Positions 4,384 to 12,612 of a DNA stretch of 64,000 nucleotides are shown one piece after another. This DNA is from Actinomycetota bacterium. Its GTDB lineage: Bacteria > Actinomycetota > Acidimicrobiia > Acidimicrobiales > CAIXPF01. The notes below the pieces were generated by a model. The model was not told where the DNA came from. It searched no databases and was given only the letters and a program-made list of their open reading frames with translations. The translations under genes were made by a program, and so were the position numbers. Numbering within the stretch: position 1 is the stretch's first letter; each line of letters begins with the position of its first letter. The stretch spans positions 5,964 through 69,963 of the forward strand of contig JAXHUH010000257.1 in the NCBI GenBank assembly GCA_034211175.1, given 5' to 3'.

Positions 4384-5418
4384 ATGGAACGGCCCCGAGT
4401 CAGCATCGGGCTGCCCGTGTACAACGGGGAGCGCTTCCTGGACCAGGCGATTCGTACGCTGCTGGCCCAGACGTTCACCGACATCGAGCTGCTGCTCGCC
4501 GACAACGGCTCCACGGACGGCACCCAGGCGATCTGCGAGTACTGGCAGAACGCCGACCAGCGTGTCCGGTACCTGCGCAGTGAGGAGAACCACGGCGCGG
4601 CGTGGAACTTCAACCGCCTGCTCGACGTCGCCCGCGGCGAGTACTTCAAGTGGGCGGCGGACGACGACGAGCACGAGCCGGGGTTCATCGGTTCGTGCGT
4701 CGAGGTCCTCGACCACCACCCGGACGTCGTGCTCGCGTACACGCAGGCCGTCGAGATCGATCCCGACAGCAAGATCCTCGAGTACCGCGGCCCGGTGAAC
4801 CACGTGGACTCCGAGAGCCCGAGCGCGCGCTACCGCGCGGTGCTGCTCAAGGAGGTCTACTGCTACGCGATCTTCGGGGTCATCCGGACGGCGCCGCTGC
4901 GCACGACGGCGCTGATCGGGCCGTTCACGATGTCGGACCGGGTGCTGCTGGCCGAGCTGGCGCTCCATGGCCGCTTCGTCGAGCTGCCCGAGGCGATGTA
5001 CCGCCATCGCGAGCACCCGGGCCGGTCGATGTACAAGTACGCGGACGACCGCGACCGCCTGTGGTGGTTCGACACGAGCCGCAAGGGCGGTTCGAGCATG
5101 CCGCGGTGGAAGGTCGGCCTCGAGTACGCCCGGTCGCTGCGCCGTGCCCCGGTGACGGGCAAGGAGCGCCTGGCGTCGTGGGCGTCGTTCGCCCCGTGGG
5201 CGCTCGACAACCAGCGCGTGCTGTCGCGCGAGCTGGCCCGTACGGTGCTGACGCTCAACGGGAAGCTGCGGCTGGTGCCCCCGTCGTCGGAGACCGTGCC
5301 GGCGACGATCCCGTCGGTGGAGGCGCCGCCGTCGTCTCACAACGGTGAGGCGACCGGCGGTTCGGGTACGGACCCGGACGACGCCGGGGCGACGGTCCGG
5401 GCCGGCGACCCCGGCTGA
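4384..5418 (+). CDS. Glycosyltransferase family 2
   Basis: VSIGLPVYNGE, DNGSTDGT and WAADDD motifs. Confidence 0.93.
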   Translation: MERPRVSIGLPVYNGERFLDQAIRTLLAQTFTDIELLLADNGSTDGTQAICEYWQNADQRVRYLRSEENHGAAWNFNRLLDVARGEYFKWAADDDEHEPGFIGSCVEVLDHHPDVVLAYTQAVEIDPDSKILEYRGPVNHVDSESPSARYRAVLLKEVYCYAIFGVIRTAPLRTTALIGPFTMSDRVLLAELALHGRFVELPEAMYRHREHPGRSMYKYADDRDRLWWFDTSRKGGSSMPRWKVGLEYARSLRRAPVTGKERLASWASFAPWALDNQRVLSRELARTVLTLNGKLRLVPPSSETVPATIPSVEAPPSSHNGEATGGSGTDPDDAGATVRAGDPG

Positions 5419-5533
5419 GGGGCCGCGGGCGCCGCGGGCGAACCCGTCGGGTGCGCACGCACCGGTGGGGCCGGGGTCAGCTGAACATCACCCAGTGGCC
5501 GCGAGACGGACACGCGCGCGCCACGGGGGTGCC

Positions 5534-8361: not shown

Positions 8362-9287
8362 GCGTCGGGCTCGGCGACGGCGCCTCCGCGGCCGATCCGA
8401 CCGACGCCGCGGCCGGGGCCGCGCTGGCCGACCCGGCCGGCGACGGGGACCGGCCCACCCTCGGCGGCGGTCGCCGGATCACGCCGAACCTGGTCGTCGG
8501 CGCGGTGCTCGTCGGCCTCGTCGTGGTGATGGCGCTCGTGTCGTTCGTGTGGACGCCCTACGACCCGACCCGCATCGACGCCAGCGTCCGCCTCCAGGGC
8601 GCGGGCGTCGACCACTGGTTGGGGACCGACCGCTTCGGGCGCGACGTGTTCAGCCAGCTGATGGTCGGCGCCCGGACGACGTTGTTCGTCGGGTTCGTGG
8701 CCGTCGGGATCGCCGCGGCGGTGGGTACGCCGCTCGGCATCGCCGCCGCCATGGCCCGGCCGGGGGTCGGTGAGGTCGTGATGCGGGGCAACGACCTGCT
8801 CCTGGCGTTCCCGGCGCTGCTGCTGGCCGTGATGTTCAGTGCGGTGTACGGCTCGAGCACGTTCACCGCCATGGTCGCCATCGGCATCGCCACGGTGCCG
8901 ACGTTCGCCCGTCTCGCCCACAGCGGCACCCTCCAGGTCCTGCGCACCGAGTACGTGCTCGCCGCCCGGGCGGCGGGGCGGCGGTCGGTCCACATCGGTT
9001 GGCGCCACGTGCTGCCCAACATCTCGTCGATGCTGATCGTCCAGACGTCGGTGGCGTTCGCCATCGCGGTGCTCGCCGAGGCGGCGCTGTCGTTCCTCGG
9101 CTTCGGTACGCGCCCGCCGACCCCGACATGGGGGCGGATGCTCCAGGAGTCCCAGGAGTTCCTCGCCACCCGGCCCGAGCTGGCGCTGTGGCCCGGGCTC
9201 GCCATCGCGGTGGCGGTCCTCGGGTTCAACCTCCTGGGCGACGGGCTCCGGGACCTCCTCGACCCGCGCCTGTCGGTCGGCCCGTGA
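8358..9287 (+). CDS. ABC transporter permease (DppC/OppC-like)
   Basis: HWLGTDRFGRD, EYVLAARAAG and LGDGLRDLLDPR motifs; GTGA overlap with upstream gene. Confidence 0.95.
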   Translation: MSVGLGDGASAADPTDAAAGAALADPAGDGDRPTLGGGRRITPNLVVGAVLVGLVVVMALVSFVWTPYDPTRIDASVRLQGAGVDHWLGTDRFGRDVFSQLMVGARTTLFVGFVAVGIAAAVGTPLGIAAAMARPGVGEVVMRGNDLLLAFPALLLAVMFSAVYGSSTFTAMVAIGIATVPTFARLAHSGTLQVLRTEYVLAARAAGRRSVHIGWRHVLPNISSMLIVQTSVAFAIAVLAEAALSFLGFGTRPPTPTWGRMLQESQEFLATRPELALWPGLAIAVAVLGFNLLGDGLRDLLDPRLSVGP

Positions 9288-11230
9288 GCACGGTCGACGG
9301 CCGCCCGGTCGGCGCCCCGGACGCGACCGCGACCGGTGGCGCGGCGCTCGTCGCCCGGGGGATCGGGGTGTCCGCCAGCGGCGTCGAGCTGGTCCGCGGG
9401 GTCGACCTCGAGCTCGGGACCGGCGAGCGGGTCGGGCTGATCGGCGAGTCGGGGTGCGGGAAGTCGCTCACCGCCCTGACCTTGATGGGCCTGCTCCCCG
9501 AGGGGCTCGACGCTCACGGCTCGGTGCGCCTGGCCGGTGTCGACGACGAGCTCGTCGGCGCGCCCGAGCGCCTGCTGTCCCGCCTGCGGGGCCGCGACCT
9601 GGCCATGGTGTTCCAGGAGCCGATGACGGCGCTGAACCCGTCGATGACGGCCGGCGCCCAGGTGGCCGAGGCGATCACGATCCACGGCGACAAGGCCCGG
9701 CGGCGCACGGCCGACGAACGGGCTGTCGAGCTGTTGGACCGGGTCCGGCTCGACGACCCGGCCGGCGCCGCGGCGGCCTACTCCCATCAGCTGTCGGGCG
9801 GGCAGCGCCAGCGGGTCGTGCTGGCGATGGCACTGGCCAACGACCCGGCCGTGCTGCTGTGCGACGAACCGACCACCGCGCTCGACGTGACGGTGCAGCG
9901 CCAGATGCTCGACCTGATCGCCGAGTCGGTGGCCGCCAGCTCGATGGCGTTGCTGTTCATCACCCACGACCTGGCGGTGGTGGCGTCGATCTGCGAGCGG
10001 GTCGTCGTGATGTACGGCGGGCGCATCGTCGAGCAGGGCCCGGTCGGCGACGTGTTCGGCCGGCCCCGTCACCCGTACACGGCCGGCCTGCTCGGTGCGT
10101 CGGACCTGGAGGCGACCGACGCCGCCGGCCGGCTCCCGACGATCGCCGGGTCGGTGCCGGCGGCGGGCCTGTTCCCGTCGGGTTGTGTGTTCCGCGACCG
10201 GTGCCCCCGGGCGCAGCCGGACTGCGAGACCGAGCCGACGTGGTCGTCGGACCACGGCACCGGCGGCGGCTTCGCCTGCCACCACCCCGTGCCCGTCGAT
10301 GTCCCTGGGAGCGCCATCGGGACGGTGACGGGGTCGGCGCCGGACGCCGGGCCGGGTGGCGCCGCCGGGTCGGCAACCGCACCGGGGACCGGGCGCCCGG
10401 AGCCCGGCCCCGGTTCGGCGAGCGACGACGCCGGCGCCGAGCCGCTGATCGTGGTCGACGGGCTGCGGCGCAGCTACCGGCGGCCCCGGCGCTCGCTGTT
10501 CGGGCCCCGCCCGACGGTCGACGCGCTGAAGGGGGTGTCGTTCGAGGTCGGCGCCGGGCAGCGCTTCGGGGTGGTCGGCGAGTCGGGCTCGGGGAAGTCG
10601 ACGCTGGTGCGGCTCCTGGCGGCCCTCGACCAACCGACCGGCGGCTCGATCCGCGTCGAGGGCCGCGAGATCGGTGGCGTGCGTGAACGCGACCTGCGGT
10701 GGCTGCGACGGGACCTGCAGATCGTGTTCCAGGACCCGATGGGCTCGCTCGACCCCCGGATGCGGGTGCGTGACATCGTCTGCGAGCCCCTCCACGCCCA
10801 GGGTGCGGCCGATGCCGGTGATCGGCTCGACGAGATGCTCGGTGCGGTCGGCCTGTCGACCGCGATCGCCCACCGGTTCCCCCACCAGTTCTCCGGCGGG
10901 CAGCGACAGCGGATCTCGCTCGCCCGGGCGCTCGTGACCCGGCCCCGGATCCTGCTGGCCGACGAGCCGGTCAGCGCGCTCGACGTGTCGGTCCGGGCCC
11001 AGATCCTCAACCTGTTGGCCGACCTGGCGGACCAGTACTCGCTCACCGTCGTGTTCGTGTCCCACGACCTGGCGGTGGTGCGCCACGTGTGCGACACGGT
11101 CGCGGTGATGCGGGGCGGCGAGATCGTCGAGCTCGGCCCGACCGAGCAGGTGTACACCGACCCCTCCCACGACTACACGCGGGCGCTGCTGGCCGCGTCG
11201 CCGTCGCTGCGGGGCGCGCTCACCGGCTGA
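9284..11230 (+). CDS. ABC transporter ATP-binding protein with two fused NBDs (DppD/F-like)
   Basis: Two Walker A motifs (GESGCGKS, GESGSGKS), LSGGQ and FSGGQ signatures, Cys-rich C-terminal subdomain after the first NBD. Confidence 0.95.
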   Translation: MSTVDGRPVGAPDATATGGAALVARGIGVSASGVELVRGVDLELGTGERVGLIGESGCGKSLTALTLMGLLPEGLDAHGSVRLAGVDDELVGAPERLLSRLRGRDLAMVFQEPMTALNPSMTAGAQVAEAITIHGDKARRRTADERAVELLDRVRLDDPAGAAAAYSHQLSGGQRQRVVLAMALANDPAVLLCDEPTTALDVTVQRQMLDLIAESVAASSMALLFITHDLAVVASICERVVVMYGGRIVEQGPVGDVFGRPRHPYTAGLLGASDLEATDAAGRLPTIAGSVPAAGLFPSGCVFRDRCPRAQPDCETEPTWSSDHGTGGGFACHHPVPVDVPGSAIGTVTGSAPDAGPGGAAGSATAPGTGRPEPGPGSASDDAGAEPLIVVDGLRRSYRRPRRSLFGPRPTVDALKGVSFEVGAGQRFGVVGESGSGKSTLVRLLAALDQPTGGSIRVEGREIGGVRERDLRWLRRDLQIVFQDPMGSLDPRMRVRDIVCEPLHAQGAADAGDRLDEMLGAVGLSTAIAHRFPHQFSGGQRQRISLARALVTRPRILLADEPVSALDVSVRAQILNLLADLADQYSLTVVFVSHDLAVVRHVCDTVAVMRGGEIVELGPTEQVYTDPSHDYTRALLAASPSLRGALTG

Positions 11231-11290
11231 CGGCGCCGCCGGGGAGAAGGCCCCCGGGGAGAGAAGACGGACCGGGGCCGAAAACGGCTC

Positions 11291-11319
11291 CGGCCCGAGG
11301 AGCTCAGCTCCTCGGGCCG
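11291..11319. terminator. Perfect 13-bp hairpin, probable terminator (followed on the minus strand by GCCG-UUUU-CGGC)
   Basis: CGGCCCGAGGAGC-TCA-GCTCCTCGGGCCG between convergent transcription units. Confidence 0.7.
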
Positions 11320-11750
11320 CAGACCAGATTCCCGCCGTAGGGTTCCGCTCGCTCTGGTCGAGATCGGCCTGGAGGCCCGCCAGCCTCCGGTGGCCGACCT
11401 CGCGATTGAGAGGTTCCCGCCGTATGTGCCGGTGGTTCCGACCGACCCCGCCAGGCCGGTCGGCCACCGTCTTTGCCCTGACCGGGATCCGCCTCCCGAT
11501 CCGAGCTCCCGCCGCGGGTATCGCCTCCGCCGGTTCCGCCACCGGCTTCGGCACCCGCAGTGGGTGTCCCCGCAATCGGGATCCGCCTCCCGATCACGCT
11601 CGGTTGTCCGCCGAGAGACGCATGGCCCGCCGTGCCATCCGTCCCTCGGCGTCCCGCCGTTTCGAGCGACTCGGTTCCGCCGTTCCTTGCCGCTCACCCA
11701 GTCCAACGACGAGGCCCGGAGCCGATAACACTCCCCGGCGGAAACTTCTT
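11291..11750 (-). ncRNA. Candidate structured ncRNA with repeated GGCGG(G)A motifs, many in hairpin loops; ends approximate
   Basis: 13 GGCGG on the minus strand and none on plus in 11330-11700; at least 6 stem-loops; G-U pairs only fit the minus strand; no credible ORF. Confidence 0.65.
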
Positions 11751-11916
11751 CGTTTGCCCTGTTCAGGGGCCACAAATTCGGTCGCGACACCGTTAGCCGG
11801 GCCCGGACGGCCGCTGCTCGGAGCGTCCGCCCGACGGCGCCAAGTGGCCGACGCCGAACGGCCGGTGCCGCGGGGTGGCCGGCGATGCCGGGTGGGCGGT
11901 GTTCAGGTGGGCGGTG

Positions 11917-12612
11917 TCAGGTGGCCGGCAGGTCCCACAGCTCGCGGCGCCAACCGGACTCGGCGAGGACGAGGCGGTTGCGTCCGCCGGGGGCGTCGAG
12001 CTCGAGGGTCTCGTACGCGGCGTCGCCCGCCCACAGCAGGGTGGGGCCGTCGGGGCTCTTGGCCATGATCGTCCGGTGGCGGGCCACGGGCGCCCGGCGG
12101 ACGGCGTCGAGGAGCACGTCGACGCGGTCGTGCTCGGAGATCGTGCCCAGCGTGATCCACGTCGGCGGCATCAGCTCGACCTCCCCCGCCTTGTGGCGGT
12201 CGAGCAGATGGCGGGGCGACACCCACTGGTGCTCGTGGATCTCGCCGCCGTCGATGGTGACGTCGTCGTGGGCGGCCTCGGGCCGGCCGACGAAGAACCA
12301 GGTGTCGAAGCGCCGGGCCGCGGCGGCCGGTGGCTGCCACTGCGAGAGGTGGACCAGGCCCGACGGTTCGACGGCGAGGCCGGCCTCCTCGTGGGTCTCG
12401 CGCACCGCGGCCCGCCGGGCGGCGAGCTCGACGTCGTCGGGGTGGTCGGGGTCGATGTCCTCGGGGTCGATGCGGCCACCGGGGAACACCCACATGCCGC
12501 CCGCGAACGCGAGCTTGGCGTTGCGTCGGAGCATCAGCGTCTCCAGGCCGTCGCCTCCGTCCCGGACGAGGACGACGGTGGCCGCGGGTGTGGCATCGGT
12601 CATGACCGCCAT
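11917..12612 (-). CDS. NUDIX hydrolase
   Basis: WVFPGGRID...AARRAAVRETHEEAG Nudix box; RFDTWFF motif. Confidence 0.93.
   Translation of the reverse strand: MAVMTDATPAATVVLVRDGGDGLETLMLRRNAKLAFAGGMWVFPGGRIDPEDIDPDHPDDVELAARRAAVRETHEEAGLAVEPSGLVHLSQWQPPAAAARRFDTWFFVGRPEAAHDDVTIDGGEIHEHQWVSPRHLLDRHKAGEVELMPPTWITLGTISEHDRVDVLLDAVRRAPVARHRTIMAKSPDGPTLLWAGDAAYETLELDAPGGRNRLVLAESGWRRELWDLPAT

Follow-up and report, generated by a model that had tools for sequence, protein, structure and literature searches.

In the portions of the literature cited here, RNAs that act as sponges for a global regulator are documented mainly for CsrA in Proteobacteria; CsrB and CsrC, for example, hold 13-22 GGA motifs (cited passage of PMC6546359). 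Here we describe an array of GGCGG-bearing hairpins at positions 11281-11700 of a 64,000-nucleotide (nt) window of an Acidimicrobiia genome (contig C257, bases 5964-69963), and compare it with these RNAs. Like CsrB/CsrC and RsmX/RsmY/RsmZ, the array consists of several hundred nt of hairpins in which a G-rich motif recurs 10-20 times in loops and linkers; its stems vary while the motif is kept, paralogous copies exist, a terminator-like hairpin closes the end and csrA is encoded in the genome. GGA is also frequent on one of its strands (20 minus versus 3 plus, with 9 of the 20 predicted mostly unpaired). It differs from the Csr/Rsm RNAs in its motif, which is GGCGG(G)A or GGGCGGAG and not A(N)GGA, and in that neither the window nor the two further arrays of the genome (on contigs C131 and C132) match the Rfam 15 models of CsrB, CsrC or RsmX/Y/Z. 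It also differs in its host, a member of the Acidimicrobiia with FliW, whereas the small RNA (sRNA) antagonists named in the cited passages belong to E. coli, other Gram-negative bacteria and gamma-proteobacteria; in addition, the three arrays lie directly behind genes and do not look like obvious stand-alone genes. We tentatively propose that the array specifies, on the minus strand, one member of a lineage-restricted family of three sponge-like decoy RNAs built of GGCGGA hairpins.

Other described elements resemble the array in part. 6C RNA likewise is a structured RNA of actinobacteria that repeats a loop motif, but it is about 75 nt long and has two C-rich loops, whereas the favoured strand of the array displays G-rich loops; the 6C model (RF01066) matched nothing, either in the genome or in the window. 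Type III antitoxins of the ToxI kind are also non-coding arrays of repeated units, and ToxI binds a protein. In ToxI-type arrays, near-identical units of fixed length repeat in tandem beside a toxin gene, whereas the units of our array vary in sequence and spacing: Tandem Repeats Finder (TRF) reports no tandem array in 11231-11880, and PADLOC reports no toxin or defence protein beside the arrays, save a methyltransferase near the one on C131. A search of the literature, mostly at the level of abstracts, returned no report of GGCGG-loop arrays or of sRNAs from Acidimicrobiia.

A first-pass annotation of the window had counted CCGCC 13 times on the plus strand, with no opposite-sense copy in that span and about two per strand expected. 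These counts hold: the motif lies at 11332, 11377, 11417, 11448, 11489, 11509, 11527, 11536, 11583, 11608, 11627, 11654 and 11677, so that GGCGG is found 13 times on the minus strand and never on the plus strand, and the whole of 11236-11737 is free of opposite-sense CCGCC. The genome average of 6.28 CCGCC per kb per strand gives 2.34 per 376 nt. Dinucleotide shuffles of the array hold 3.84 +/- 1.76 copies (maximum 10), and 13 is reached in 0 of 2000. As for the extended form GGCGG(G)A, the array has 10 against 0.35 expected per 376 nt from the genome average, a number again reached by 0 of 2000 dinucleotide shuffles. Raw GGCGG density is not unusual by itself, because 35 loci of the genome hold at least 13 same-strand copies in 350 nt; most of those inspected resemble proline-rich coding sequence, their GGCGGCGG runs presumably being proline codons read in antisense. 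GGCGG(G)A is far more selective than the raw count.

The array itself is non-coding. The gap in which it sits had been described as lacking a credible open reading frame (ORF), and periodicity of G+C at third codon positions (GC3) is indeed missing from it, the spread between codon positions being 0.05-0.32 compared with 0.40-0.70 in the flanking genes. Open frames of 97-220 aa run across the gap, and Pfam gave no match for the three gap-crossing ORFs tested (11173-11790, 205 aa; 11406-12068, 220 aa; 11390-11728, 112 aa). The first of these, the longest on the minus strand, translates into an Arg/Gly/Ser-rich, apparently low-complexity product. The stretch also matches no known RNA family: Rfam 15 returned no hit in the window at the gathering score and, at E <=10, only weak, chance-level matches to unrelated families. 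Two internal repeats reported earlier are present, namely an exact 19-nt duplicate (11483-11501 = 11577-11595, 100% identical) and TTCCCGCCGTA, which occurs twice.

The region is also more structured than its shuffles. On the minus strand 11270-11760 folds at -300.4 kcal/mol (z -8.56), and on the plus strand at -256.2 kcal/mol (z -6.46). Six hairpins had been named by the first-pass annotation, and all were recovered at their positions, with stems of 5-11 bp and GGCGG in the loop, each of them stable when folded alone. The perfect 13-bp hairpin followed by UUUU that it placed at the minus-strand 3' end is also there, and the helix extends to 11285-11326. The elements of the array, from its proposed 5' end, are as follows.

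11281-11700, minus strand: proposed non-coding RNA (~420 nt) made up of hairpins and linkers, with 13 GGCGG (10 of them GGCGG(G)A) and 20 GGA; 5' limit inferred, 3' limit at the terminator-like helix
11664-11695, minus strand: first hairpin of the array in the minimum free energy structure, AACGGCGGAAC at its tip
11605-11655, minus strand: long hairpin with the tip AUGGC-ACGGCGG-GCCAU (11622-11638); -38.2 kcal/mol, z -7.51
11571-11598, minus strand: hairpin CGUGAUCGGGA-GGCGGA-UCCCGAUUGCG, 11-bp stem and GGCGGA hexaloop; -16.6 kcal/mol
11529-11546, minus strand: hairpin GCCGGU-GGCGGA-ACCGGC
11480-11501, minus strand: hairpin GAUCGGGA-GGCGGA-UCCCGGUC, 19 nt of it exactly duplicating 11577-11595; -12.5 kcal/mol
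11438-11463, minus strand: hairpin CCGACCGGCC-UGGCGG-GGUCGGUCGG; -20.9 kcal/mol
11360-11402, minus strand: two-tier hairpin, in which an internal loop separates the 10-bp outer stem from the inner hairpin GGAGGC-UGGCGG-GCCUCC (11371-11388); -32.3 kcal/mol, z -4.68
11285-11326, minus strand: terminator-like helix, a perfect 13-bp stem (11291-11319) with 5 extra pairs, followed directly by UUUU (11281-11284); -36.5 kcal/mol, z -4.71

Comparison with a close relative indicates that pairing is spared by substitution. A 263-nt contig from a metatranscriptome library spans 11337-11599, wholly within the array, and is ~94% identical to it, with 15 substitutions and 2 indels; 12 of the 15 substitutions were listed and scored against the minus-strand structure. 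Six of these 12 fall on unpaired bases, including all three bases of the internal loop of the two-tier hairpin and the bulge that faces it. Five of the six at paired bases (11398, 11445, 11513, 11519 and 11533) retain the minus-strand pair through exchanges between G.U and A-U or between G.U and G-C, and the sixth, at 11402, breaks the pair at a helix end. The G.U pair 11398/11363 of the two-tier hairpin becomes A-U in the relative, the U.G pair 11445/11456 becomes C-G, and the hairpin at 11529-11546, which retains its loop motif, has U.G in place of a C-G and lacks its closing pair. Read on the plus strand, every one of the five pair-keeping sites shows an A.C mismatch, either in the array or in the relative. 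As a rough guide, five of six would have a probability near 0.01 if random retention were ~30%, both figures being our own estimates. The relative loses GGCGG at 11509 and 11527, neither of which is in a hairpin loop, and keeps six copies, including all five loop-borne ones in range; at 94% identity, the retention of the loop-borne copies is weak evidence.

The minus strand is thus the better candidate for the RNA strand, as the first-pass annotation had it. The fold energies, the number of G.U pairs (13 minus versus 8 plus), the position of the hairpin and UUUU, and the five pair-keeping substitutions that exist on the minus strand only all favour it, and the three pairs said to form as G.U on that strand alone (11363/11398, 11445/11456 and 11513/11559) are confirmed. 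Two DNA contigs from public runs also overlap the array. A 198-nt contig from soil spans 11615-11802 with 10 differences, and the seven that were listed all lie at 11718 or beyond; this drop in conservation suggests that the 5' limit is near 11700. The other, of 151 nt (X5), spans 11503-11645 with 14 differences, one of which, in that range, was listed. By read mapping, the RNA-library run left the flanking genes uncovered, and from the other runs came fragments only; absent cover was given no weight.

The array is not alone in its genome. A scan for at least five GGCGG(G)A in 400 nt returned 25 loci, of which the top three hold 11, 10 and 9 sites, the next holds 6 and the other 21 hold 5. The top three are C131:40700-41110, the C257 array and C132:3040-3700, with GC3 spreads of 0.09, 0.15 and 0.02 in that order, and the six weaker loci that were read include no array of the C257 type.

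C131:40700-41110 (L119:2201-2611), minus strand: array with 16 GGCGG (7 GGCGGA and 3 GGCGGGA)
C132:3040-3700 (L120:2041-2701), minus strand: array of 12 units of ~46-52 nt with hairpin tips CC.RGGGCGGAG; both neighbour genes on the same strand

In all three arrays the motif runs essentially one way (GGCGG on one strand versus the other: 13/0 for C257, 16/3 for C131 and 18/2 for C132), and each array lies directly 3' of a gene on the motif strand. The neighbour genes have no family in common: the C131 array, for instance, follows an 80-aa ORF and a gene for a type II DNA methyltransferase and precedes one for an FtsX-type permease. In composition, the array contigs are typical of the genome. 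The C131 and C132 loci gave no Rfam match at the gathering score, and on the motif strand they also fold better than shuffles (z -5.13 and z -5.87, respectively). C132 is the clearest case of a conserved loop on a variable stem. Its 12 units are spaced 42-52 nt apart, save two double gaps, and in an anchored alignment of all 12 the sole conserved part is CC.RGGGCGGAG, the flanks staying below 0.9 bit per column. Within units these flanks are complementary: 12 hairpins with stems of at least 4 bp were listed, 10 of which enclose a GGGCGGA unit, and recent copying is limited to 2.6 copies of a 46-nt unit. The earlier claim that stems differ while the loop motif is kept is therefore reinforced by the two further GGCGG(G)A arrays, and a conserved tip on variable stems points to the design of a decoy RNA, not to a copied repeat.

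To explain these results we propose that an RNA would run on the minus strand from about 11700 down to 11281 and end at the strong hairpin and UUUU. It may be the long 3' tail of the transcript of the NUDIX hydrolase gene upstream, or an sRNA that is processed out of that transcript or initiated behind it. Such RNAs from the three unlinked arrays would show GGCGGA or GGCGGGA repeatedly on one strand, often at the tips of sequence-variable stems, and this multiply displayed motif would capture a sequence-specific RNA-binding factor in many copies, diverting it from its other targets. If this is true, the three arrays may extend RNA-based titration of CsrA to a FliW-bearing Gram-positive lineage, or they may signal that a new regulator that binds RNA exists in this phylum, whose global RNA chaperones are poorly known. 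With a ligand other than CsrA, we envision that an actinobacterial lineage lacking Hfq and ProQ would possess its own global system of post-transcriptional titration.

Which factor might be titrated? CsrA is the only protein known to be titrated by loop arrays that the genome encodes, and the GGA core of its sites is contained in the motif; it is a candidate only. csrA and fliW, whose presence the first-pass annotation had left to be checked, are both encoded. They lie divergently, separated by ~1 kb, on a contig that includes flagellin genes; the composition of the csrA contig is typical of the genome. The single CsrA is canonical (LVLTRR...VRLGITAPREVAIHRSEL), scoring 78.9 bits with PF02599 and 76.1 with the NCBIfam csrA equivalog (cut-off 73). 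Its evident native sites lie in the flagellin leaders: each of the four (contigs C268 and C177; L114, L115, L116 and L117) would form a CCCGAC-ACGGA(G/C/U)-GUCGGG hairpin and carries CA(C/G)GGAGGA at the ribosome-binding site, so that these leaders evidently hold textbook CsrA sites in an actinobacterium. The high-affinity form of a CsrA site is an ANGGAX hexaloop on a stem (Duss et al., PMC4005645, in the passage cited). The divergent CsrA suggested as a partner by the first-pass annotation is thus not what the genome offers, since its CsrA is canonical, the native sites are ANGGAX hexaloops and GGCGGA does not fit them.

The array could nonetheless be a CsrA sponge analogous to CsrB/RsmY/RsmZ, its CGGA sites binding CsrA dimers and relieving repression of flagellin and other targets, a reading that we consider unlikely. 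The location of the canonical CsrA on a flagellar contig beside FliW and flagellin genes speaks for it, as do the CGGAG common to native ACGGAG and array GCGGAG (the array loops share CGGA(G) with the flagellin-leader sites), the existence of three paralogues as in Csr/Rsm systems, and the GGA content. The motif strand carries 20 GGA versus 3 on the other strand in C257, 21 versus 1 in C131 and 27 versus 8 in C132, against a genome mean of 5.6 per 376 nt; only 11 of 315,697 genome windows hold at least 20 GGA, in 5 loci including the C257 array. We take the density of the latter (20 in 376 nt) to be similar to that of CsrB. CsrA is a candidate and not the favoured partner, because the invariant part of the motif is GGCGG and not GGA, the loop is not ANGGAX, under half of the GGA are predicted to be unpaired and FliW-bearing bacteria are described without antagonising sRNAs in the cited passages of PMC4894983, PMC7829508 and bioRxiv 10.1101/2020.07.02.184341. 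As the motif is not the ANGGAX loop that CsrA prefers, a GGCGGA-reading partner other than the known ones is at least as likely. It is possible, if doubtful, that the arrays form a new class of decoy RNA whose ligand is such a GGCGGA-loop-reading factor and not CsrA: either a protein, or the UCCGCC loops of an RNA specified by the other strand of one of the sister arrays.

Several observations weigh against the proposal of a decoy RNA, some of them against CsrA in particular. GGCGGA, the sequence of the array hexaloops, fits ANGGAX in no register, and A.GGA makes up only 3 of 20 GGA in the C257 array, 1 of 21 in C131 and 3 of 27 in C132. GGA predicted mostly unpaired number 11 of 21 in C131 and 6 of 27 in C132, besides the 9 of 20 in C257. 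CsrA is present in 9 of 12 relatives of the family and in none of 8 genomes from outside it, and no array was found in the CsrA-bearing relatives. Three of the 13 GGCGG in the array are not followed by (G)A. In a relaxed hairpin test, GGCGG is enclosed by a stem of at least 5 bp in 6 of 13 cases in the C257 array, 3 of 16 in C131 and 6 of 20 in C132, compared with a genome background of 29%; C257 alone stands out. Consensus scans found no promoter and no terminator, and did not flag the hairpin with UUUU. For C132, energy and G.U pairs favour the strand opposite to the motif (-397 versus -372 kcal/mol; 21 versus 4 G.U); the RNA strand is therefore not uniform, or not settled, across the arrays. 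The evidence from the metatranscriptome library comes from a single contig at depth 3.3, which shows presence, neither strand nor ends, in a library that may contain DNA, and three of its 15 substitutions are unscored. Finally, a 27-29-nt tandem repeat containing GGCGGAG (unit ~CACCGCCTGAGCGGCGGAGAGCGGGAAG, 2-4 copies) is found at ~18 loci of the genome, and a link of the arrays to repeat elements is therefore possible.

The last point leads to the view that the arrays are selfish or neutral hairpin repeats, such as REP/BIME clusters or decayed minisatellites, which have no ligand and at most stabilise or terminate the upstream transcript. We regard this view, too, as unlikely. Like REP/BIME elements, the arrays are GC-rich hairpins clustered behind genes, intergenic and restricted to one lineage; they contain recent internal duplications (the 19-nt duplicate of C257 and the 2.6 units of C132), and the genome does have a family of tandem palindromic repeats. 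In fact, the CACCGCCTGAGCGGCGGAGAGCGGGAAG repeats begin at or just behind stop codons, often at contig ends, and are REP-like, with a CCGCC/GGCGG mini-palindrome in each unit. In REP elements the stem sequence is conserved among numerous dispersed copies, whose orientation often alternates, whereas we find three array loci only, no second copy of the element, one-way motifs, and stems that vary around a kept loop, the reverse of what repeat copying gives. The substitutions of the RNA-library contig spare pairing, and 7-mers containing GGCGGA are not over-represented genome-wide (observed/expected 0.81-1.25).

The remaining possibilities involve base pairing, the other strand or no RNA function at all. 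GGCGGA loops might kiss UCCGCC, for example in an opposite-strand transcript of C132 with loops UCCGCCCUG, making the array an RNA sponge or partner for another RNA. The strand figures are suggestive here, with C132 favouring the strand opposite to the motif and C257 the motif strand, and judging from the sequences such loops would be exactly complementary over 6 nt. But the G.U pairs of C132 are not independent, because many of them stem from a single conserved C...A pair that recurs from unit to unit; moreover, both C132 neighbours are on the motif strand and 6C RNA, a known RNA with C-rich loops, is not found in the genome, so that we consider this reading improbable. It is more improbable still that the plus strand of C257 gives an RNA with C-rich loops (UCCGCC) which, like 6C or RoxS-type RNAs, targets G-rich ribosome-binding regions by pairing. 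Its fold is good and its loops are C-rich, but the minus strand folds better, all five pair-keeping substitutions are minus-only, the promoter scan found no promoter-like site, and the strong hairpin would stand at the 5' end, 60 nt behind the stop codon of the ABC gene, with no U tract after it. That the array codes for protein, for instance through the 205-aa ORF, or is a DNA-level array of protein-binding sites is hardly credible, even though open frames cross the gap and the motifs are directly oriented like iterons. Besides the lack of GC3 periodicity and of Pfam matches and the low-complexity product, coding is disfavoured by an insertion and a deletion 13 nt apart in the RNA-library contig and by substitutions spread over codon positions 1/2/3 of the 205-aa ORF as 3/5/4 (hand count), and DNA sites would have no need of flanking complementary arms.

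The family of decoy RNAs that we propose would be confined to a narrow lineage: across some 700 related genomes, no counterpart came to light. The C257 element has no second copy in its own genome, and neither 40 relatives nor 400 genomes of the order yielded a DNA homologue, the top match reaching 52 bits over 59 nt (the tally includes the genomes G266 and G396, flagged unpublished); for the C132 array, 30 relatives yielded none. Relatives of the NUDIX gene, at most 56% identical, were found at 40 genome loci and 41 metagenome loci. The first-pass annotation had looked to synteny beside this gene, and no counterpart was found there: among the 36 genome loci examined (E <=1e-37; without L051-L054), the metagenome loci not being scanned, no GGCGG array lies behind the gene, and the best count, 9 GGCGG in 350 nt, falls in a coding-like region. 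Pattern searches were no more telling. GGCGGAG N{15,45} GGCGGAG N{15,45} GGCGGA matched 181 of 300 genomes of the order (G155, G181, G226 and G266, flagged unpublished, included) at rates like those of the reversed control and is uninformative; the matches listed resemble tandem repeats or coding sequence. The C132-type pattern AGGGCGGAG N{20,50} AGGGCGGAG, run on 400 genomes of the class, occurred 5 times in the source genome and once each in 4 others (unpublished G613 included in the tally), with scattered matches of the reversed control at a similar low level. None of our claims depends on any single one of the unpublished genomes.

The source genome is a metagenome-assembled genome of 8.0 Mb (72.8% GC, 353 contigs, completeness 98%, contamination 9.5%), and the titles of the closest NUDIX relatives place it among the Acidimicrobiia. 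In the window, the array occupies a 686-nt gap, 11231-11916, that separates the following two genes.

8999-11230, plus strand: ABC transporter ATPase gene, oligopeptide-type (PF00005, PF08352), convergent with the array; start codon not fixed
11917-12612, minus strand: NUDIX hydrolase gene (PF00293, E 4.3e-14), upstream of the array on the same strand

Other dense or repetitive loci were met along the way. Inspection of those rich in GGA or GGCGG on C48, C134, C93, C218, C172, C325, C246, C289 and other contigs showed that they are arrays of a different nature or no arrays at all, unlike the three described here. On C134 (~5050-5430, minus strand) two copies of a ~150-nt repeat show no coding periodicity and end in the tRNA-T-arm-like GGTGGATTCGAACC. 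On C48 (~11650-12030, minus strand) ~52-nt tandem GGA-rich repeats (...CCCCCGGAGGCTCGGAAGCCCAGCCGGAGGCGCAGGGAGATCAG...) come with open reading frames and probably specify a repetitive protein. The CACCGCCTGAGCGGCGGAGAGCGGGAAG repeats are found on C2, C39, C53, C73, C124, C164, C184, C221, C12, C34, C239 and other contigs; single matches to the unit with at most 2 mismatches, at 55 loci, may be chance. In a genome of the same family (G010:C2:127636-127921), ~20 tandem copies of a 15-nt unit (GAGCGGGCGGAGTTG) are probably a coding coiled-coil repeat and not such an array. In the window itself, short tandem repeats with 17-nt and 14-nt units (GGTGGGCGGTGTTCA, 2.6 copies) run through 11860-11928 and so across the stop codon and the adjoining 3' end of the NUDIX gene.

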